In this document: in pieces, positions 7,682 through 25,340 of the stretch
Position numbering within the stretch: the stretch's first letter is position 1
How the letters are laid out: each line of letters opens with the position of its first letter
Source of the DNA: Erysipelotrichaceae bacterium
GTDB lineage: Bacteria; Bacillota_I; Bacilli_A; Erysipelotrichales; Coprobacillaceae
Assembly: GCA_018365815.1 (NCBI GenBank)
Contig: JAGZJH010000001.1
Coordinates: forward strand, 53,176-117,175
DNA length: 64,000 bases
Direction: 5' to 3'
The notes under the pieces: model-generated
Database searches by the model: none
Seen by the model: the letters and a program-made list of their open reading frames with translations, nothing else
What the model was told of the DNA's origin: nothing
Position numbers and translations under genes: made by a program

Positions 7682-9355
7682 CTAAATAACAATGACATCA
7701 ATATCTGGGTAATCACAATATTCAGGCAAATCACCATTACAAATAGCAGCCGCAACAAAAGCCATAAACCCATCTGTTTTACGTGATTTTGGTTCGATTT
7801 TATCATATTCAAAATTCCCTTTATTTACAGGAACAGTCTTTGTGTTGTTTGTAAACCATTTCATTAAAAAATTATCACCCCAACGAATTGACCCGTTGTT
7901 AAACCACGATTCAATTACCGGGACAATTTCCATTATATCGCTTGGTCTAACTAATTTTACTCTCGTTCGATCTAAAGGATTAAAGCCTATCTTTTTTAAG
8001 TATTTAGAAAATAAAGAATATCTATATTTATCCAAACAAACTTTTTTAATGTCATAATATTGCGCTTGTTCTTCTAACCAATCTGTAACGTGTGATGGAT
8101 TGATTTCTATATCATCAACAATCGTTAATAAGCCTTCATCAACTGCTCTTTTTAAATCTATTTTTATGCGTGCTTTATCTTTGGATTGTGAACAGAACCA
8201 TGCATGTGATTTCCAATAGATCATATCGTCTTTTTTAAATAATAAGCCTGCAACAACAAAGTCACTGATTAAAGCATAATCAATTCCGGCAATACAAGGC
8301 ATACCCGTTAAATCGATTAATGGTTTATTTGCTCTTAAAATATTGTCCCAAGAAGTCACTGCTTGTTCTACCGCCTCTTTAATCAAGTTCATTCTTTTTA
8401 CAATGAATGCCCTAGATGTATTTGGGTGTTTGAGATACTTTTGATACTCTTTTCGCATCGTTTCAAGCAATGTTGGACGGTATCTTAATGATGGATTGGC
8501 TTTATTCCATTTTGATTCATCATGGATCTCTTTTTCATCATCTAACATGCACATAAACACTAATGTGCCATTATCAGGCTGCTTAAATCTTAATATATCT
8601 TTTGCATCACGAACATCATCATCAAGTGGTCCATCACGGACATCGCCTTGCGTTGAAATTGATGTCGTGCGAGGATGTTCGATTTTACCAAGACCAGTAT
8701 TCGCAACATCAATTAATTCCCAATTTTGATATGCATGCTTTTCATCAAAATCATTTTTCCCCGGTCTTCCGCCGTCTTTAGTATCCGCATTTCTAGTACG
8801 ATAACGAATAGTTGATTTTGTTTTTAAATTAGTGATTTCTTCTTTGTTCCAATAAAAAAATTTGCGCATGATTTTTTGATTATTTTCTAAAACGTTATAT
8901 ATTTCATTAAATGATGTTTTGGCTTGGTCCTCACTAGTTGCATAAATATCAATATTGTAATTTTGAATACCATGTGTTTCAGTGAGTAAACAAAAATCTT
9001 CAAATGATAAATATCCATTTTTTCCCGCGCCACGACCTACTAAAACAAATAAATCAGGAAATCGTGGAAAGCCATCTTTTCTAAAAACACAATTATGTAA
9101 AACAAAGCAAAATTTTTCCCATTCAAGCAAATTAAAAGGGAAATATTTTTGATATGAAAAATATTTTTCTATTTGATTTTCATCCCAAAACAATGTCTCA
9201 TTTTTAAACACATGAATAATAAAGTCGTAAAGTTTATGCTGCCATTTGCAGTGTTCCTCAGGATGCGTCTTAATAAAAATTAAATATATTGCAACGTCTC
9301 TTGGCAATTTTGGAAGTTCATTTAAAAAATCATAACTCAATGAGATCACCGGCAT
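7682..9355 (-). CDS. terL: Terminase large subunit
   Basis: Walker A VGRGAGKNGY; 557 aa; downstream of the terminase small subunit gene. Confidence 0.9.
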   Translation of the reverse strand: MPVISLSYDFLNELPKLPRDVAIYLIFIKTHPEEHCKWQHKLYDFIIHVFKNETLFWDENQIEKYFSYQKYFPFNLLEWEKFCFVLHNCVFRKDGFPRFPDLFVLVGRGAGKNGYLSFEDFCLLTETHGIQNYNIDIYATSEDQAKTSFNEIYNVLENNQKIMRKFFYWNKEEITNLKTKSTIRYRTRNADTKDGGRPGKNDFDEKHAYQNWELIDVANTGLGKIEHPRTTSISTQGDVRDGPLDDDVRDAKDILRFKQPDNGTLVFMCMLDDEKEIHDESKWNKANPSLRYRPTLLETMRKEYQKYLKHPNTSRAFIVKRMNLIKEAVEQAVTSWDNILRANKPLIDLTGMPCIAGIDYALISDFVVAGLLFKKDDMIYWKSHAWFCSQSKDKARIKIDLKRAVDEGLLTIVDDIEINPSHVTDWLEEQAQYYDIKKVCLDKYRYSLFSKYLKKIGFNPLDRTRVKLVRPSDIMEIVPVIESWFNNGSIRWGDNFLMKWFTNNTKTVPVNKGNFEYDKIEPKSRKTDGFMAFVAAAICNGDLPEYCDYPDIDVIVI

Positions 9356-9653
9356 TAAATTCGATATTTAAATGCTGCAATATTTTCAACATTTGAGCAT
9401 TTACTTTTACTAATTCAGCAATCGAATCATTTTTCTTAATAATGCTCTGTCCTTTTGCATTATAACTTTCGACGGATACACCTCTTTTTTCAATGTCTTC
9501 TTGCAACATTTCTTTAGTCAACCAAAATGACATATAATCTTCCACTAGGTCTAAATTCTGTTTAGAATTCTTTTGTGAAAACTCTAGTTGCTCTCTTAAA
9601 CCATCTCTTAATTCTTTGTATTTTTTAGTACGCTTAGTATTTTTCACTTCCAT
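9330..9653 (-). CDS. terS: Terminase small subunit (P27 family-like)
   Basis: 107 aa, directly upstream of and overlapping the terminase large subunit gene. Confidence 0.7.
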   Translation of the reverse strand: MEVKNTKRTKKYKELRDGLREQLEFSQKNSKQNLDLVEDYMSFWLTKEMLQEDIEKRGVSVESYNAKGQSIIKKNDSIAELVKVNAQMLKILQHLNIEFNAGDLIEL

Positions 9654-9655
9654 TT

Positions 9656-9853
9656 TTACACCTCACCTAATTTCTTTTTTATTCTATTTAAAACCTTATT
9701 TGCTTTAGTTTGAGGTGCTTTAATTAAATAAAAGTAGGGTTCTTGACGTTCAAGAGAACAAAAAATACATTTGTAAATAATTGTTTTTTTCATTACAAAT
9801 GTATCTACTTTTTTATATTTAATTTTTTTAGTAACCCAACCATGATAGCACAA
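9656..9853 (-). CDS. Hypothetical phage protein
   Basis: ORF only. Confidence 0.3.
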   Translation of the reverse strand: MCYHGWVTKKIKYKKVDTFVMKKTIIYKCIFCSLERQEPYFYLIKAPQTKANKVLNRIKKKLGEV

Positions 9854-9904
9854 AATAAAACACCTACCTTAATAACTTGTGTGTATGCGTGAGAAATCGA
9901 AACT

Positions 9905-9972
9905 GTTCGGTATCCCCCTCCGTTGAAACGCCCCCTTTTTAAAATCAATTTTATTTTGACGGGGGGTTATAA
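9905..9972. other. Candidate cos site: C5/G6 tracts around an AT-rich core, between the HNH and terminase small subunit genes
   Basis: CCCCCTCCGTTGAAACGCCCCC ... GACGGGGGG in an otherwise roughly 28% GC region; position matches cos sites of HNH-dependent HK97-like phages. Confidence 0.4.
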
Positions 9973-10269
9973 TTTGGAGTATTCATTTACATATTTCAAT
10001 AAATTATCTATTGTTTCTTTTGGAATGAAATAGTATTGTTCAATTGTTTTATAATTTTTTTCATTTATCTTATCAATTACTTCATTTGATTTTATAGAAC
10101 GACAATGATTAACTTCTACGATGTATCTTATCTTGCCATACAGTTCATAAACCATTTGGTTAATCTTTTTAAGTTTCACTCGTTCATTCATTGTCTTTGT
10201 TTCTTTAGAATTAAGGAAGATTGCTTCTTGTATTAATTGATCTATCATTTGTTCACCATCTTTCCTCAT
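9967..10269 (-). CDS. Hypothetical phage protein
   Basis: ORF only. Confidence 0.3.
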   Translation of the reverse strand: MRKDGEQMIDQLIQEAIFLNSKETKTMNERVKLKKINQMVYELYGKIRYIVEVNHCRSIKSNEVIDKINEKNYKTIEQYYFIPKETIDNLLKYVNEYSKL

Positions 10270-10633
10270 TCATAAATTTATGACTATCTAATTGTTTCTT
10301 ACGTCTTGCTTTGATTAATTTTTCCGGATGAAGCATAGCATGGCATTTTGGACATACTGCTATTAAATTACGATATTTCTTTCCATTATGATAATAATAT
10401 CTGTCTAATGCCAATCGTGGATATTTTCTTACAAACTGAACATGATGAACAGTGTTTGCTTTCGGCTCTTTGCAAATCTCACATTCGTAATGTTGTTCTT
10501 TTAATATGTCATCTTTAAGATGTCTAAATTCTTTGCCTTTATAAAATCGCCACAGTTCATCTTTATCTATTAATTCTTTAATCCATTTCTCTAACGCATC
10601 TTTTGTCATTGTAAAATAAAAACACAATCTCAT
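10253..10633 (-). CDS. HNH endonuclease (packaging-associated)
   Basis: Motifs CEICKE...VHHV...CPKCHAMLH; lies next to the terminase small subunit gene. Confidence 0.8.
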   Translation of the reverse strand: MRLCFYFTMTKDALEKWIKELIDKDELWRFYKGKEFRHLKDDILKEQHYECEICKEPKANTVHHVQFVRKYPRLALDRYYYHNGKKYRNLIAVCPKCHAMLHPEKLIKARRKKQLDSHKFMNEERW

Positions 10634-10641
10634 TGATTGTG

Positions 10642-10848
10642 CTAAATCTTCTTAACATTAGTCGCTTGTAATCCACGTTCAGCTTGTACAATTTCAAATT
10701 CTACACGTTCACCCTCTAAAAGATTTTTAAATCCCTCTTGATTAATTTGTGAATAATGTACAAACACATCTTTTTCTTGCTCATCATCTGTAATGAAACC
10801 ATACCCTTTATTTTTATCAAACCATTTTACTTTACCAATTTTTAACAC
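10642..10848 (-). CDS. csp: Cold-shock protein, CspA family
   Basis: [16 protein letters not shown]...VFVHYS cold-shock domain; 68 aa. Confidence 0.85.
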
Positions 10849-11102
10849 TTAATCTTCCTCCTTAATTTCTTCACACTAATATATTAACACATAAAAAAGC
10901 AAAAAACGTTTCTATTTTTTCGCAGTTTTACGGACTTTTTTATATAACGAATGTTACATATCTTATATTGTGTTAAATTCGTAAATATTTAAAATCATAC
11001 TATATTTACTAGCAATTCTCGTTATTTTAAAAAATGAATGTTACATCGACTCATTATGTAACATATTTCTTTATTAAAGAATATAAACGTTGCGTTTTTA
11101 AC

Positions 11103-11702
11103 TTATTTCTTTCGTTCTAGTGGATTAAACGACTTCATTGCTATTCGTTGTTCGTCTTTTTCAATTCCGATGTATCTAAGCGTAATTTGTGGCGAAGAAT
11201 GATTAAACAATTTCTGCAACATCACAATATCATGAGTTTGCATATAATATTGATATCCAAATGTTTTTCTCATTGTGTGTGTTGCCACAATTCCAATTTC
11301 ATCACCGAAAAGTGCTTGAATATCTTTCTTTAAAAAATGATATGCACCTTGTCTTGTTAATGGTTTATTATTTTTACGTGAAGCAAATAAATAATCTGAT
11401 CTTTTTAAATCATATTTTTTTATATACTTTTTTATTTCCTTTACTGCAATATCATTTAAATATAATGTTTTTTGTTTTCCGGTTTTCTTTTCAACCATTT
11501 CTACACGATCATCTATTAAATCACCAGCACGAATAGGCAAAATATCACTTACTCTTAAACCACTAAAAATTCCAAGAAAAAATATGAGATAATTTCTATC
11601 TCTTATAAATTCTTGGTATTTTGTTTTAACTTCTTTATTTTTTAATGAATCCAACACATCATTTAACACATGATTATCTTTAACTGGATCTACATATCGC
11701 AT
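11103..11702 (-). CDS. Small tyrosine site-specific recombinase (phage integrase family, catalytic domain only)
   Basis: R...HTMRKTF...LGHSS...TLRY catalytic motifs; 199 aa; own terminator hairpin upstream; flanked by 16-bp direct repeats. Confidence 0.7.
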   Translation of the reverse strand: MRYVDPVKDNHVLNDVLDSLKNKEVKTKYQEFIRDRNYLIFFLGIFSGLRVSDILPIRAGDLIDDRVEMVEKKTGKQKTLYLNDIAVKEIKKYIKKYDLKRSDYLFASRKNNKPLTRQGAYHFLKKDIQALFGDEIGIVATHTMRKTFGYQYYMQTHDIVMLQKLFNHSSPQITLRYIGIEKDEQRIAMKSFNPLERKK

Positions 11703-11725
11703 ATTATTTCCCCCTTTCCATACAT

Positions 11726-11752
11726 AAAAAGAACTCCTTTTACAGAGTTCTC
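11726..11752 (-). terminator. Intrinsic terminator-like hairpin (AGAACTC/GAGTTCT plus T-run) just upstream of the recombinase ribosome-binding site
   Basis: 7-bp stem, 8-nt loop, TTTTTAT follows on the minus strand. Confidence 0.4.
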
Positions 11753-11872
11753 TTTAGATGAATTAATCAAATTTTTAAAAGCGTGATCCGTATGTCTTTC
11801 GACAATGTCATTATAACATATAACACGCTATAAAATGTCTCGATTTTTTCGCAGTTTTTATGCATTTTCACA

Positions 11873-12310
11873 TTAATTAGGCATATAAGCCTTAATCACA
11901 TCAAATGCTTTATCTTCATATCGATAGTAAGTCGATTTATCAATATACAGTTCATCGCATATTTTATTAATGCTGATATTATCAAAATATCTCATTTCAA
12001 TAATCTTAAACAATTTATCATTTACATTAATTTTTAATTCACTTAATGCGGCTTCGATATTTTCAATCGTATAAATAAGTTCAATTCTTTCTTCGATTAA
12101 TTTATCTTTTAATGAAATATTTCTAATATAAATTGAACCTTTATCATGTTGACTATTTGCACATTGTTGATCTAGTTTAACAGATTGAATACCTGTATAA
12201 TTATTTAATTCTTCTAAACGATTATTAATGTTATGTAACTTGCTTTTAAAAGCGTTATATGAACGCAATTGTATTTTAATTTCTTTTTTTACATCATAAG
12301 AATAGCGCAT
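11873..12310 (-). CDS. ArpU-family late transcriptional regulator
   Basis: 145 aa, sigma-70 region-4-like C-terminus; typical position upstream of the packaging module. Confidence 0.55.
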   Translation of the reverse strand: MRYSYDVKKEIKIQLRSYNAFKSKLHNINNRLEELNNYTGIQSVKLDQQCANSQHDKGSIYIRNISLKDKLIEERIELIYTIENIEAALSELKINVNDKLFKIIEMRYFDNISINKICDELYIDKSTYYRYEDKAFDVIKAYMPN

Positions 12311-12364
12311 ATTTTTCCTCCATTGCTTTTTTTACGGATCACAATGAATACTTACTTAAAACAA

Positions 12365-12829
12365 TTATCTTTCACTTCCTTTTTCATCTTGAAACAACCC
12401 CAATTCTTTAAGAGTGTAATGTTTATCAAGTTTCATTCCTTTATACATTTCATTTTCGTGAAAACAAGGAAGTCGAAATATTTCTTTATATTCAGCATCT
12501 TCACAATGATCTAAACAAATTCGTATATATATAGTATCGTTTTCAAAATAGTTACTGCATACTTTACAAATATAAATAACCCTATCTTTAAAAGGCCTTA
12601 ACACACTCTCAAGATAACGTTTTTCAACTTCATCAAGAATTGATTGTTCGATTTCATAATTACCACATAATAAATCAACAAGTATTGATTCATTATGAAT
12701 ATGTGTTCTTAAAGAATATAATCCATATTCATCAATCATAAATTCATTAAGCAAATTTTTAATCTTAAAAGGCACACCCATTTCTACTCCTAATAATTTA
12801 GCAACTTTTTTCATTTTGTTTTCTACCAT
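12365..12829 (-). CDS. Hypothetical phage protein, Cys-rich
   Basis: ORF; CxxC...C..HC pattern. Confidence 0.3.
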   Translation of the reverse strand: MVENKMKKVAKLLGVEMGVPFKIKNLLNEFMIDEYGLYSLRTHIHNESILVDLLCGNYEIEQSILDEVEKRYLESVLRPFKDRVIYICKVCSNYFENDTIYIRICLDHCEDAEYKEIFRLPCFHENEMYKGMKLDKHYTLKELGLFQDEKGSER

Positions 12830-14068: not shown

Positions 14069-14825
14069 CTAAATTCCTAATGTCATATTGACATTCTTTA
14101 ACATTTTTTCTTTTGCTTCTTTATAAAATTGTTTTTTAATTTCAAAGCCATAGCAACTTCGATTTAATTCGGCACACGCTCTTAATGTGCTTGTGCTTCC
14201 TGCCACTGGATCAATCACAACATCACCGGGATCAGTATAAATTTCAATCAACCTTTTAAGCACCACTACTGGTTTTTGCGTGGGGTGAATTTTTGGATAA
14301 TTTCCACTTCTATCCCATTGAAACCAATTTAAAATCATATGTCCGTCATTATTAAATTTAGGTAATTTATCACGATACAAAAGCAAAGCAACTTCTACCG
14401 CCCCGCAAATTCTCATATTTGCTTTTAATGCTTGGGAAGATGATTTCTTAATGAAAAACAAAGGTTGAGCGTGTTCAAATCCGAATTTTTTTTGCATACT
14501 CTTTAATTTCATTTAATTGCTGCCACGAACAGAAAATAATCATACATGGTGCTTTTCCTTTTTCTTTCGGTTCTTTTTTTAATAAACGAGTACAAAATTG
14601 AAAGAAATTAAAGATTTTAAAATCTTTGTCTGTATCAAAGAAGGATTTACCTGCTTTTTCTGATTCACCATTTTTGTTATCACCATCGATATACCAGTCA
14701 GTCCTTGAACCATATGCATTTATACCAATGTTATATGGAATATCCGCAATAATTAATTGCGCTCTAGGTATTTGATACCTTTTAGCATTTTCAAAATGAT
14801 CGTTATACAATTCTATTTTATTCAT
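14069..14825 (-). pseudogene. Phage DNA methyltransferase (beta-class N6A/N4C amino-methyltransferase), split into two ORFs by one extra A in an A8 tract (plus 14486-14493)
   Basis: N-terminal ORF has DIPYN (motif IV); C-terminal ORF has HPTQKP and DPVAGSTST (motif I). Removing one A fuses them into a protein of about 251 aa. Confidence 0.7.
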
Positions 14826-15405: not shown

Positions 15406-16171
15406 TTATTGTTGCTGATTCACAATAACCTAATATTCTTGAAACAATACGATCTGCATCAATATCATTCAAGCCTTTAGTATCATCGGAATATTTTTTT
15501 CTTAATCCATCGACATTTAAATTTGAAGTATATAAGGTCTGTAAGTTATGACGATTACGTGTATCAACAATTTCAAATAATTTTTTGGCATCAAATTCTT
15601 TCATGTACTCTGCTCCTAGATCATCAAGTACGAGAATTTGAACTTGTTTAATAAAACGCTCATAATCAAATGATGCCTCTGCACTGTATGACTTCTTGAT
15701 TTCATTAAACATTTCATTGACATTTGTAAAATAAACATCTTCACCTTTTCTAAGCAGCATGTCGGCACACCAAATAATCAAATGAGTTTTGCCAACTCCA
15801 CAAGAACCGCTTAAAAATAAACCTAAACTTGTTTCACGATTGAAATTATCGCAATATCTTGAAACGAGATTATAAGCGTTAATATTGTTTTGGTTAGTCC
15901 TAAATGGAGTTTTTAACATTTCAAGCATCTTTGAAGAAATATTACTAACGCTTAATCGTTGCTCATATGTCTTAGATATTAAACGTTGAGTAAGTTCACG
16001 CTCACGTTCTTGATTTTCTTTTTCAATTTCACATGAACACAATGTCATAAAATCAATACCTAATTTCGAATTGACACAATGATATATTTTTTCACCACAC
16101 GTAGGACATACATGAGAAAATATTTTTTCATATGGCGCTTTAGAAACTAACTCCTGAATACTTTTCATCAC
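15353..16171 (-). CDS. DnaC/IstB-like helicase loader ATPase
   Basis: Walker A GSCGVGKTHL and Walker B ILVLDDLG; downstream of the replisome organizer gene. Confidence 0.8.
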   Translation of the reverse strand: MMKSIQELVSKAPYEKIFSHVCPTCGEKIYHCVNSKLGIDFMTLCSCEIEKENQERERELTQRLISKTYEQRLSVSNISSKMLEMLKTPFRTNQNNINAYNLVSRYCDNFNRETSLGLFLSGSCGVGKTHLIIWCADMLLRKGEDVYFTNVNEMFNEIKKSYSAEASFDYERFIKQVQILVLDDLGAEYMKEFDAKKLFEIVDTRNRHNLQTLYTSNLNVDGLRKKYSDDTKGLNDIDADRIVSRILGYCESATINDVDHRIASFVERKKNG

Positions 16172-16904
16172 GTTTCACTCCTTTTTTGATTGCTTCGTTG
16201 AGATACTTCTCAAAATTCGCTTCTCTAAACAACGTATTCGGTACTAGATACTTTTCAAAAGACGTTCCCTCCCAATCTTTGATTTTGGCATCAATAACAA
16301 ATTTCATCTGCTCGACAGTACGACCGGTTGCAATGAGTTTAGAAATTGCTTTGATTGTTTCTTTTGTTTTAGGCGAATAATTAACATTTCTTTTTTGATT
16401 TAAATATTCGATAACCTCCTGCACGACATTATTTAAATATATTTCTTTATTTTGTATATCTTTACTTTGTATATCTTTATTTAATTGTGGTCGATTTTCT
16501 ACCCCTAGAACTTCTACCCCTAGAACTTCTACCCCTTGACTTTCTACCCCTAGAAAATCACCCCCTAGAGATTTATTGTTATTTTTTTGATTTAAATCAT
16601 GACATGGCACTTCGTAAATATGATATATGTATGTAATTCTTGAACTTCCTTTCTTTGCGTATTCTTTTTCAACCACTAAATGATTAAATTGTTTTAATTC
16701 ATCTACTGCTGATTCAATTGCTGATGTCTTTTCTTTGCAAATAGCGGCTAATCCATTGATGCTGTAAGACCAATTATCAGGTAAAGAAAGCATCAATGTA
16801 AGTAAACCTTTTGCTTTTAAAGATAATTCGGTATTTCGCAAATATTCATTATTAATCGTTGTATAATTTTCCGATTTATGTGTTCTCAAAACTGCCAACT
16901 CCAT
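16140..16904 (-). CDS. Phage replisome organizer / replication initiator (DnaD-like N-terminus, conserved phage C-terminus)
   Basis: Domain architecture; internal 15-bp iterons are translated as GVE(V/S)(L/Q) repeats. Confidence 0.65.
   Translation of the reverse strand: MELAVLRTHKSENYTTINNEYLRNTELSLKAKGLLTLMLSLPDNWSYSINGLAAICKEKTSAIESAVDELKQFNHLVVEKEYAKKGSSRITYIYHIYEVPCHDLNQKNNNKSLGGDFLGVESQGVEVLGVEVLGVENRPQLNKDIQSKDIQNKEIYLNNVVQEVIEYLNQKRNVNYSPKTKETIKAISKLIATGRTVEQMKFVIDAKIKDWEGTSFEKYLVPNTLFREANFEKYLNEAIKKGVKRDEKYSGVSF
16450..16569. repeat. Putative phage origin of replication: two AT-rich direct repeats (TTTGTATATCTTTA x2) plus 4.5 tandem 15-bp iterons TTCTACCCCTAGAAC
   Basis: Seen directly in sequence at 16496-16569; a GC-rich island inside the initiator gene. 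Confidence 0.6.
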
Positions 16905-22535: not shown

Positions 22536-23699
22536 ATGAAAGGACGTGTTTTTATCATGGCAAAAAAGCGTAAATATAGGCGGAGACCTAACAAAAGTGG
22601 AACAGTAGTCAAACTATCAGGCAATCGAAGAAAGCCATTCATGGCTAAAATAACAACAGGTTACGATGTCATCACTGGCAATCAAATTCAAAAACCTATC
22701 GGTTATTTTGAAACTCGACAAGAAGCACTTGATGCCTTATCTATTTATTCACTTACTCAAAATAAAAATTTAAACTCTAATACTTTAAAAGAGTTAGGTG
22801 GTAATACATTTGATGAGATCATGAAAATACAAAATAAAAGTCTACCTAATTTTGGGCAAATATATGACATTATTTTTGACAAAGATTTATGTAATCTTTC
22901 AAAGCAAAGTCAAGGTGCTTATAACTCTGCTTTTAAAAGATTAAAAGTGTTACATCACAGAAATATTTCGGATATTAATTTATTTGATATGCAAAATCAA
23001 CTTGATTTAGCGTCTACCGAAGTTCAAGAAAAAACCTTATTAAACATGAAAAGTATTTGTGTTAGAGTATTTGAATATGCCGTTATTCATCAATATATTG
23101 AACGTAACAGTGATTTTACTTCGTACTTAACTTGTAAGTCGAATAAGACAACAAACACGCACAGAAAGCATATACCGTTTAGCATAGATGAAGTTAAACT
23201 TTTATTTGATGATTACTCAATTGAATCTAAATGTGTATTAGTTTATATTTTTACTGGTTGTCGACCAATCGAATTAATCAACTTTAAAAAAGAAAATTTA
23301 TATTTAGATGTCTTATCAACTGATAATGGAAACGAACTAAAAATCGATTATATTATTGCCGGTTCAAAAACAGATGCAGGAAAAAACAGAATTATCCCAA
23401 TTCACCATTTAATTAAACCTTTTATAAAAGAAGTAGTTAATGAATTAGGAAAATATAAAGCACCTATACAAGTGAGAAATAAAATCTTTATGCCTTTAAT
23501 GAAAAAGTTAAAACTTGAACATATTCCATACGATACACGACATACATTTGCTACTTTAGCTAAATTATCAAACATTGATGAGTTTTCAAGAAAGCGAATT
23601 ATGGGACATAAAAGTGTAAATATAACCGATGATGTTTACACTCATTCTATCAAAAATAAATTGTATATTGAGATGAATAAAATCAGTCTAAATATTTGA
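22536..23699 (+). CDS. int: Tyrosine integrase with N-terminal arm-type DNA-binding domain (probable start at ATG 22557)
   Basis: C-terminal R...HDTRHTFAT...MGHKS...VYTH catalytic tetrad and tyrosine; transcribed outward toward the prophage end. Confidence 0.9.
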   Translation: MKGRVFIMAKKRKYRRRPNKSGTVVKLSGNRRKPFMAKITTGYDVITGNQIQKPIGYFETRQEALDALSIYSLTQNKNLNSNTLKELGGNTFDEIMKIQNKSLPNFGQIYDIIFDKDLCNLSKQSQGAYNSAFKRLKVLHHRNISDINLFDMQNQLDLASTEVQEKTLLNMKSICVRVFEYAVIHQYIERNSDFTSYLTCKSNKTTNTHRKHIPFSIDEVKLLFDDYSIESKCVLVYIFTGCRPIELINFKKENLYLDVLSTDNGNELKIDYIIAGSKTDAGKNRIIPIHHLIKPFIKEVVNELGKYKAPIQVRNKIFMPLMKKLKLEHIPYDTRHTFATLAKLSNIDEFSRKRIMGHKSVNITDDVYTHSIKNKLYIEMNKISLNI

Positions 23700-25256: not shown

Positions 25257-25340
25257 GCCCGAGTGATGAAATTGGTAGACATGAACGACTCAAAATCGTT
25301 TGGCTATGCCATGTCGGTTCGAGTCCGACCTCGGGTACCA
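25257..25340 (+). tRNA. tRNA-Leu (anticodon CAA), type II with long variable arm, CCA encoded
   Basis: Acceptor GCCCGAG/CTCGGGT, anticodon loop CTCAAAA, T-arm GGTTCGAGTCC; extended -10 TGTATAAT upstream. Confidence 0.9.

Follow-up and report, generated by a model that had tools for sequence, protein, structure and literature searches.

The window analyzed here is a stretch of 64,000 nt from an Erysipelotrichaceae bacterium (assembly GCA_018365815.1, contig JAGZJH010000001.1), and the subject of this study is a small tyrosine recombinase gene in its late phage region, together with the repeats that flank and follow that gene. Judged by its sequence, the window holds a prophage that has an arm-type integrase of its own about 11 kb away from the recombinase. 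All genes of the recombinase and late region lie on the minus strand. An LtrB-type (DUF1492) late transcriptional activator gene of 145 aa (11873..12310; PF07374, 28.7 bits against a cutoff of 21.5; phrog_36, ‘transcriptional regulator’) is followed, after an intergenic region of 170 nt, by the gene for the Xer-like recombinase, which has 199 aa and a catalytic domain only (11103..11702; PF00589, E = 5e-21; phrog_216). After a further 254 nt comes csp, a cold-shock-domain gene of 68 aa (10642..10848; PF00313, E = 2.4e-28), and then a block from an HNH endonuclease gene to terL (7682..10633) with which the packaging and late genes begin. The window has two separate repeat systems, CTGCGA boxes by LtrB and ATGTTACAT arms by the recombinase. 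The linkage of this family of mini-recombinases to a double-dyad element, as it emerges from sequence comparison, was not found in the literature and appears to be the new part of this work.

By its sequence the 199-aa protein is a small Xer-type tyrosine recombinase with its catalytic residues intact. It scored 75.7 bits against PF00589 (cutoff 27.1), and the catalytic residues R50, K73, H142, R145, H168 and Y177 were invariant in a set of 35 and in a set of 61 diverse homologs. An AlphaFold2 (AF2) model with a predicted local distance difference test (pLDDT) score of 89 has only two short helices ahead of the catalytic domain. The top Foldseek match in the PDB was XerH-difH (5jk0), followed by XerA, Brujita integrase and Cre. 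Among solved structures, the best sequence matches were XerA (4a8e, E = 5.7e-20) and XerH, in each case to the C-terminal catalytic domain only; positions 12-179 of the recombinase profile aligned to XerA residues 109-277, and the N-terminal core-binding domain is lacking. The NCBIfam cutoffs for Xer proteins were all missed (XerA, 81.8 vs. 220; XerD, 58.6 vs. 329.6; XerS, 56.1 vs. 267; XerC, 49.2 vs. 335). Nor is the protein an integrase proper, having no arm domain and lying some 11 kb from the real Int.

Downstream of the recombinase gene lies an element of about 115 bp that consists of two dyads with identical arms (ATGTTACAT), different centers and a spacing of 87 bp. Site I (11038..11064), which lies 39 nt past the recombinase stop codon, reads ATGTTACAT-aatgagtcg-ATGTAACAT on the minus strand. 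Site II (10951..10978) reads ATTTAACAC-AATATAAGAT-ATGTAACAT on the same strand and includes ATATAAGATATG at 10957-10968. A preliminary description of this DNA had noticed these repeats: it correctly placed a third copy of ATGTTACAT at 10951-10959, and the ATGTTACAT-N9-ATGTAACAT inverted repeat that it reported is indeed present, but at 11038-11064 and not at 11028-11054. Between the perfectly symmetric portions of the arms lie 9-12 nt. Sites of the dif type span about 28-31 bp, with two arms of some 11 bp around a center of 6-8 bp. One possible reading of the dyads is a compatible 11-6-11 arrangement, which gives ATGTTACATAA-TGAGTC-GATGTAACATT for site I, ATTTAACACAA-TATAAG-ATATGTAACAT for site II, and ATTTAACAGAA-TATAAG-ATATGTTAAAT for the family consensus of site II. 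The same layout is kept in four related loci (L105, L018, L020 and L016) with recombinases that are 57-77% identical, at a spacing of 86-87 nt and with an unconserved spacer. Site I of these relatives has the form arm-N9/10-arm’ (for example ATCTTACATaatgagacaATGTAAGAT in L020), and site II the form arm-(C/G)WWTATAAGAT-arm’.

The element extends well beyond these close relatives. In a family survey, the 300 nt downstream of the recombinase gene were scored for a double dyad (maximum score 36) in 83 distinct loci. Scores of at least 30 were reached in 33 of the 83 downstream regions, compared with 9 of 415 shuffled sequences and none of 83 coding controls. The double dyad recurs behind the recombinase gene in phages of Bacillus, Clostridium, Streptococcus and Erysipelotrichales. 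Its arms are specific to the lineage, being GAACACAAC in phi3626, GAATTTAAC in phiCD6356, AATCAGACA in Javan370, AGTTACnCA in B. cereus phages including phIS3501, and TATTTGACA, GAATGTAAC and AATATAACA in further lineages, and inside each phage the four arms agree. The spacing between the two sites falls into clusters of 77-79, 83-89 or 109-111 nt. The center of site I varies by lineage; that of site II is conserved family-wide, with ATATAAGATATG found exactly in 34 of the 83 downstream regions vs. 1 of 830 shuffles.

The dyad element and the recombinase gene were also found to be linked when the search was started from either side. Of 109 sequences searched with an nhmmer profile of site II, 78 contained a copy, never more than one per locus and in every case on the recombinase strand; site II was co-oriented with the gene in 77 of 77 loci and in the window, where the profile has a single match. 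In the reciprocal test, viral contigs were scanned with the 17-mer ACANAATATAAGATATG alone, which yielded 120 loci, 111 of them informative. A family recombinase was encoded on the same strand in 102 of the 120 loci, in 84 of these within 300 nt upstream of the motif, and on the opposite strand in none; no recombinase was detected in nine loci, and in another nine the flanking sequence was too short to judge. In 14 viral loci of the B. cereus group (L047, L051, L053, L056, L058, L059, L064, L066, L079, L085, L086, L090, L096 and L103) the double dyad is intact but removed from the recombinase gene, by 0.6-2.3 kb on its downstream side or by 2.2-2.8 kb on its upstream side. In these displaced elements the two sites are still 84 nt apart, and the 54-nt segment between them is conserved within the group. 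Because sites I and II stay together when displaced from the gene, they appear to behave as one cis element.

Comparison of neighboring genes suggests that the arms follow the recombinase and not the adjacent regulator, because arms are shared where the upstream genes are unrelated. In the clade of the window, recombinases are 56-72% identical, and the open reading frames (ORFs) immediately upstream are mutually unrelated and not Ltr-like by PHROGs. Across all loci with related recombinases and unrelated upstream genes, arm identity was 0.76 compared with a baseline of 0.48. The double dyad is probably the target of the recombinase, a prediction made from this linkage.

The sequence 40-130 nt after site II was also found to be a frequent mosaic junction (L026-L031, L036-L062, L076-L078, L081-L102 and others). 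Among 68 pairs of loci that were at least 80% identical over the 46 nt before site II, 36 were unrelated in the 44 nt sampled shortly after it, and the reverse pattern, with unrelated sequence before and similar sequence after site II, was never seen in this comparison. Between L040 and L076 the divergence begins within the site II center. The junction may have arisen by site-specific exchange between phages, or because accessory genes are preferentially inserted there.

The second repeat system is the pair of 16-bp direct repeats which had been described as the ends of a small recombinase cassette. The 16-mer ATTTTTTCGCAGTTTT occurs exactly twice in the window, at 10914-10929 and at 11843-11858, so that the perfect pair stands but its second copy lies one base away from the 11842-11857 given for it before. 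The pair encloses the recombinase gene (11103-11702), although not that gene only, as had been stated, since the repeats downstream of the gene fall inside it as well. A bare 16-mer pair is not significant alone, because when a 64-kb window with 29% G+C was simulated 100 times by an order-2 Markov model, an exact pair within 1.5 kb arose in 30% of the runs; anywhere in a window, about 10 pairs were found. Three features make this pair non-random. The similarity of the two copies runs on, gap-free, to 45 nt at 78% identity; both are intergenic, each with an extended -10 element (TGnTAWAAT) exactly 27 nt downstream; and in L105, which encodes a recombinase of 77% identity, the same box is again duplicated on either side of that gene.

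On the minus (coding) strand, the two copies share the pattern CTGCGA-N-…-N18-TGnTAWAAT. Copy 2 (11843..11858), an exact match to AAAACTGCGAAAAAAT and a putative activator-binding direct-repeat element, begins 15 nt past the LtrB stop codon; it reads AAAACTGCGAAAAAAT-CGAGACATT-N18-TATAAT, and the extended -10 element TGTTATAAT lies 27 nt downstream of it (11810..11818), with no match to a -35 element and with its columns invariant in the alignment of the four box copies. Copy 1 (10914..10929), again an exact match to AAAACTGCGAAAAAAT and aligned without gaps, lies upstream of csp and reads AAAACTGCGAAAAAAT-AGAAACGTT-N18-TAATAT, with the extended -10 element TGTTAATAT at the same distance (10881..10889), as seen in the four-copy alignment. 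In both copies TGn stands ahead of the -10 hexamer, and in neither is there a -35 element.

The closest non-identical relative that we found, L105, has both copies as well. Its first copy, CTGCGAAAAAACTGCGACATT-N18-TGATATAAT, is followed by a hairpin with a T-run, a ribosome-binding site and the recombinase gene, and its second copy, CTGCGAAAAAACTGCGACATT-N18-TGATATTAT, lies past the recombinase gene and the dyads. The L105 box is a clean tandem repeat, CTGCGA-AAAAA-CTGCGA, with a period of 11 nt. The four boxes, two from the window and two from L105, align without gaps and share invariant TGCGAAAAAA, G, AC, TT and TG.TA..AT. Both copies persist in L105 despite divergence of the halves nearer the -10 element, which leaves 73% identity over 51 nt. 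A megablast of positions 10600-12400 against 50,697 phage records gave no match, and scans of viral contigs by single proteins gave one weak relative for LtrB and none for the recombinase. A scan with the box pattern ACTGCGAAAAAAYNGMRACRTT gave no match in viral contigs and 10 and 11 single matches in genome and metagenome contigs, respectively; these are chance matches, as they come from unrelated taxa and have no LtrB, recombinase, csp or HNH gene close by.

Between the copy 2 promoter and the ribosome-binding site of the recombinase gene, at 11725..11756 on the minus strand, lies an intrinsic-terminator-like hairpin with a 13-bp stem and a U-run (-19 kcal/mol, z = -2.9), which bears out the upstream terminator of the recombinase gene in the preliminary description. 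Equivalent hairpins precede the recombinase gene in L105, Javan370 and phiCD6356. Among the late transcriptional activators that Gram-positive phages encode, proteins with DUF1492 are classed as family III (LtrB). Activators of the Ltr type are reported to bind direct repeats located just past the gene that encodes them, in an intergenic region that also includes a terminator, and to need these repeats for activation (Quiles-Puchalt et al., 2013, PMC3753634). The locus resembles such systems in that the DUF1492/LtrB gene ends the replication module and lies upstream of terS, in the direct repeats just past its stop codon, in the terminator within the intergenic region, and in HNH-terS-terL downstream. 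It differs from them in that the operator and promoter are duplicated, with the recombinase gene and the dyad element between the copies. The repeats differ too: the published ones consist of about 7 nt three times over, compared with one good heptamer and a degenerate one in the window and two heptamers in L105.

Since the layout matches the Ltr signature and four box copies align without gaps, the 16-bp repeats are, by analogy with other Ltr systems, most likely the operator halves of a duplicated, LtrB-dependent late promoter and not recombination ends. Late-promoter boxes that flank the recombinase had been one of the options offered earlier, and the conserved layout of box and -10 element, the duplication in L105 and the Ltr precedent now make it the favored one. 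We suggest that the repeats should be annotated as duplicated late-promoter operators and not as cassette ends. Promoter boxes of this kind fit the published Ltr paradigm and are in themselves ordinary.

A hairpin was also seen after each LtrB-box promoter and before its genes, at 11725-11756 and 10621-10643 in the window and at about 60-105 and about 1105-1235 in L105. In Javan370 and phiCD6356 the recombinase gene likewise lies directly behind a terminator (L023 2465-2490 and L024 2440-2475, respectively). A promoter followed by a terminator ahead of late genes resembles the lambda PR’-tR’ arrangement with Q, and because of this layout the Ltr-type ‘activators’ might act at least partly by antitermination, as lambda Q does. 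In Javan370 (L023), a tRNA-Lys(UUU) gene at 2387-2463 lies in the leader, between the regulator-distal direct repeats and the terminator ahead of the recombinase gene.

The recombinase is one member of a very large and uncharacterized family located at the early/late junction of Firmicutes siphophages. At least 7,693 homologs were found in a protein database search at E ≤ 1e-10, and tblastn located a homolog in 232 phage records, of which 128 were from Streptococcus, 35 from Clostridium/Clostridioides and 30 from Bacillus, with others from Listeria, Staphylococcus and Enterococcus. These numbers contradict the view that such a second integrase is unusual in a phage that already has an Int. The paper on phIS3501 had already mentioned a ‘second integrase’ of unknown role (PMC3335513), and no functional study of the recombinase family or of the dyad motif was found in a literature search that covered few subscription journals. 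C. difficile RecV is a possible characterized relative.

In the phage loci examined, the recombinase gene lies beside or just after an ArpU/phrog_36-type regulator gene and upstream of the HNH and terminase genes. In phIS3501 it overlaps the ArpU regulator gene and is followed by HNH-terS-terL, and in phi3626, Javan370, phiCD6356 and L106 it lies at the end of the early genes, ahead of the packaging genes. The same position, at the end of the replication genes and before HNH/terminase, is held in hundreds of phages without CTGCGA boxes. The gene is either the last early gene, as in B. cereus phages, or the first gene behind a late promoter and terminator, as in the window, L105, Javan370 and phiCD6356, and from gene order it would in either setting be expressed just before the packaging genes. 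An ORF with an HNH motif (found by regular expression) was present within 2.5 kb downstream in 22 of 78 loci vs. 0 of 75 upstream, which hints that the recombinase may be linked to cos-type packaging.

From these observations we propose, with somewhat better than even confidence, that the locus combines duplicated LtrB-dependent promoters with an Xer-type mini-recombinase whose predicted target is the double dyad and which recombines copies of the phage genome. Promoter copy 2, behind the activator gene, would fire through the terminator hairpin into the recombinase gene, and promoter copy 1 would fire into csp and, past a second terminator, into HNH-terS-terL. Recombinase dimers would then occupy both dyads, site II with its conserved center serving as the catalytic core and site I as an accessory or synapsis site. 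At about the time when the packaging genes switch on, the enzyme would recombine phage genome copies with one another, and the outcome could be an interconversion of multimers and monomers, or site-specific breakage and rejoining. What the comparisons establish is the architecture of the sequence, its conservation, and the linkage of the dyad element to the recombinase gene; that the recombinase binds the dyads and cleaves them, and its biological role, we infer from these. Recombination between site I and site II is unlikely, because their centers differ and no inverted segment was seen among relatives; the partner of each site is probably its counterpart in a second copy of the phage genome. 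Deletion or inversion between the two sites was set aside on the same grounds, no relative having the segment in the opposite orientation. The earlier suggestion of a resolution or inversion system acting through the ATGTTACAT palindromes finds partial support, in that the palindromes belong to a conserved double dyad tightly linked to the recombinase family; the relatives give no sign of inversion.

A bolder version of this proposal, which we hold only tentatively, is that the module is a reduced Xer/dif-like system, hitherto undescribed, very widespread and functionally required, whose substrate is phage DNA in replication as early expression gives way to late. It might join monomer circles into packageable multimers, resolve multimers, or make a site-specific break that triggers the switch to concatemer-producing replication.

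Several points weigh against these readings. A standard promoter scan flagged neither box promoter, both being missed because they have no -35 element. The assignment of the boxes to LtrB is made by position and by analogy with other Ltr families, and the boxes were found in one independent relative only, L105, in which the start of the contig truncates any upstream gene. Physical adjacency alone could produce part of the correlation between arms and recombinase. The differing centers of sites I and II leave the need for two dyads unexplained, and the site II center (TATAAG/TAAGAT) is similar to a -10 element, the next gene following at 20-50 nt in several relatives. Finally, it is not obvious why multimers would have to be resolved in a phage whose packaging starts from concatemers.

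In one rival reading the dyads serve transcription. The recombinase-like protein would be a regulator and not a recombinase, one that binds the dyads, loops the 87 bp between them and controls a promoter with the site II center (TATAAGAT) as its -10 element, a late-transcription switch that we regard as unlikely but worth keeping in view. The -10-like center is oriented toward the late genes in every case (gene strand, 47 copies; opposite strand, 0), and in L018, L020, L016 and L106 the next gene lies 20-110 nt downstream; in the first three of these, no Ltr-type regulator was recognized beside the recombinase. Identical arms with different centers would suit looping better than strand exchange, and a mosaic junction just past site II is what is seen at operon starts. 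However, the six catalytic residues, including the nucleophile Tyr, are invariant in 61 members, which would not be expected of a pure DNA binder. A dyad that straddles a -10 element has the geometry of a repressor and not of an activator, no -35 element is visible at site II, and both the window and L105 have a separate, complete promoter downstream of a fully conserved site II. An effect at the level of RNA, in which the four arms form alternative terminator and antiterminator hairpins in a read-through transcript and the recombinase is uninvolved, seems very improbable. The arms a1:a1’, a2:a2’ and a1’:a2 are mutually complementary, which would also explain their concerted evolution, and site I of the window folds as a hairpin with a U-run. 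The region as a whole, however, is no more stable than its shuffles (z = -0.9), site II of the window forms no hairpin, and site I has no U-run in many lineages. Conservation is highest in the 12-nt ‘loop’ of site II, and the arm mismatches inspected in L048 and the B. cereus phages are non-wobble (judged by eye and uncounted). No Rfam family was matched, the sole match (PhrS, E = 0.18) being noise, and the dyads are tightly linked to the gene of an enzyme that acts on DNA.

The two remaining alternatives would have the recombinase move or flip DNA within the locus. That the 928-929-bp unit is a mobile cassette, inserted or excisable at the 16-mers as its ends or as a target duplication, we consider a marginal option, despite the perfect direct repeats that bracket the gene and its own terminator-insulated expression signals. 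No relative with an empty site was found, and all 10 contigs with an identical recombinase have the whole unit at 99.5% identity or more, which is weak evidence against a cassette, since contigs selected by that protein could not reveal an empty site; the few variants among them are uninformative, one falling in the site I center at 11049. The idea of a cassette bounded by repeats, or of an inserted module, fails on other grounds, because the repeats are halves of larger, promoter-like units of 45-51 nt with a conserved spacing to the -10 element, L105 keeps both copies, and the same gene occupies the same position in phages that lack the boxes. The conserved partner of the family is the dyad element and not the boxes. 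Least plausible of all is a Fim-like switch in which the recombinase flips the short segment between the dyads, with a promoter or terminator on it. The protein is about the size of FimB/FimE, and the arms form nested inverted repeats, with the inner and outer pairs each perfectly complementary in the B. cereus phages. The match to the NCBIfam tyrosine-type invertases (FimB/FimE) is weak (E = 6.7e-9), with scores of 35.7 and 29 bits that lie far under the cutoffs of 221 and 222. The segment between the sites is only 54-81 bp long and unconserved in sequence, and the two centers are neither identical nor reverse complements of one another. Across 42 loci no pair of inter-site segments was found in opposite orientation, all 39 related pairs being forward.

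Among known recombination systems, the single-recombinase Xer systems (XerH/difH of Helicobacter, XerS/difSL of streptococci and lactococci, and XerA/dif of archaea) provide the best sequence and fold matches to the 199-aa protein, and share with it the use of one recombinase and a short dyad site. In XerS/difSL the site adjoins the recombinase gene. The family right arm of site II (ATATGTTAAAT) agrees at 10 of 11 positions with TTATGTTAAAT, which we take to be the XerD arm of E. coli dif, and the site II family consensus as a whole resembles what we take to be the dif sites of E. coli and B. subtilis. In contrast to Xer proteins, the mini-recombinases have only about 180-200 aa, no N-terminal core-binding domain, and scores that miss the curated cutoffs widely. 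Their gene lies at the early/late junction of a phage and not at a chromosome terminus, and it is accompanied by two dyads with unlike centers and not by one dif. FtsK is the partner of Xer recombination at dif. A protein of the FtsK/SpoIIIE family is reported to be encoded by gamma-like Bacillus phages, phiCM3 and BtCS33 (PMC4113786). These phages also carry a homolog of the mini-recombinase, and by analogy a functional connection between the two proteins is conceivable.

FimB and FimE, of about 200 aa, are similar in size, have no separate large N-terminal domain and act at short repeats near a promoter; the present protein scores far below their cutoffs, the locus has no invertible segment framed by identical inverted cores, and the relatives show no inversion. 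The site of Tn4430 TnpI, about 116 bp long, comprises four binding motifs, a core and accessory repeats, all bound by one protein. With a gene that adjoins its own site, and a site close in length to the four-arm element of about 115 bp, it offers a further parallel, although it has one dyad and two direct repeats where the present element has two dyads. The accessory sites of res and cer have a role like that proposed here for site I. Cre/loxP of phage P1 is phage-encoded, its gene adjoins its site, and it acts on copies of the phage DNA and not at the attachment site. TnpI (284 aa) and Cre (343 aa) are much larger than the 199-aa recombinase. The module is probably closest to single-recombinase Xer/dif in its likely working and to FimB/FimE in size, and a member of neither, because it has no core-binding domain, misses the cutoffs, has two dyads and lies at a phage early/late junction.

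A ‘second integrase’ beside the late activator has been annotated in hundreds of phages of Bacillus, Clostridium, Streptococcus and gut Firmicutes without being assigned a role (PMC3335513). A full catalytic set, a discrete cis element, and lineage-specific arms around a conserved center make this a testable system with defined candidate substrates. If the module were needed for packaging or late expression, it would add a component to the standard model of temperate siphophage development, and an Xer/dif-like system at the early-to-late transition, if true, would mean that the lytic cycle of Firmicutes siphophages includes a step not described before. Lineage-specific pairs of arms and recombinases, of about 180 aa, could also become small orthogonal recombination tools.

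Several neighboring features complete the picture of the locus. On the minus strand, csp is the first gene behind the copy 1 promoter and is followed straight away by a terminator-like hairpin (10621..10643, from sequence and RNA folding) ahead of the HNH endonuclease gene (10253-10633, Pfam HNH). A small unassigned ORF separates the latter from terS (9330-9653, Terminase_4), which is followed by terL (7682-9355, TerL domains). With its own promoter copy and its own terminator (10621-10929), csp has the look of an accessory gene that entered between site II and the HNH gene and is expressed on its own; a cold-shock-domain gene is found elsewhere in the pre-terminase region of L014 and L015. 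The listed start of the HNH ORF, at 10633, falls inside the csp terminator hairpin, and gene calls in relatives give a product of either 126 or 118 aa; translation therefore probably begins farther downstream, at the ATG near 10609. Farther along, on the upstream side of LtrB as seen in minus-strand direction, lie the replication genes, an antirepressor gene and a CI-like repressor gene. The arm-type integrase (387 aa, 22536..23699, plus strand; Arm-DNA-bind_4 and Phage_integrase domains) is encoded beside the CI-like repressor gene, and a tRNA-Leu gene lies nearby at 25257-25340. Two overlapping ORFs of 116 and 147 aa at 14069-14825 look like a single N6/N4 DNA methyltransferase split by a frameshift, PF01555 being found on the second ORF in L005. 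Within a replication-initiator-like gene (16140-16904, Phg_2220_C), a perfect tandem duplication of the 15-nt unit TTCTACCCCTAGAAC at 16497-16521 may mark origin iterons.

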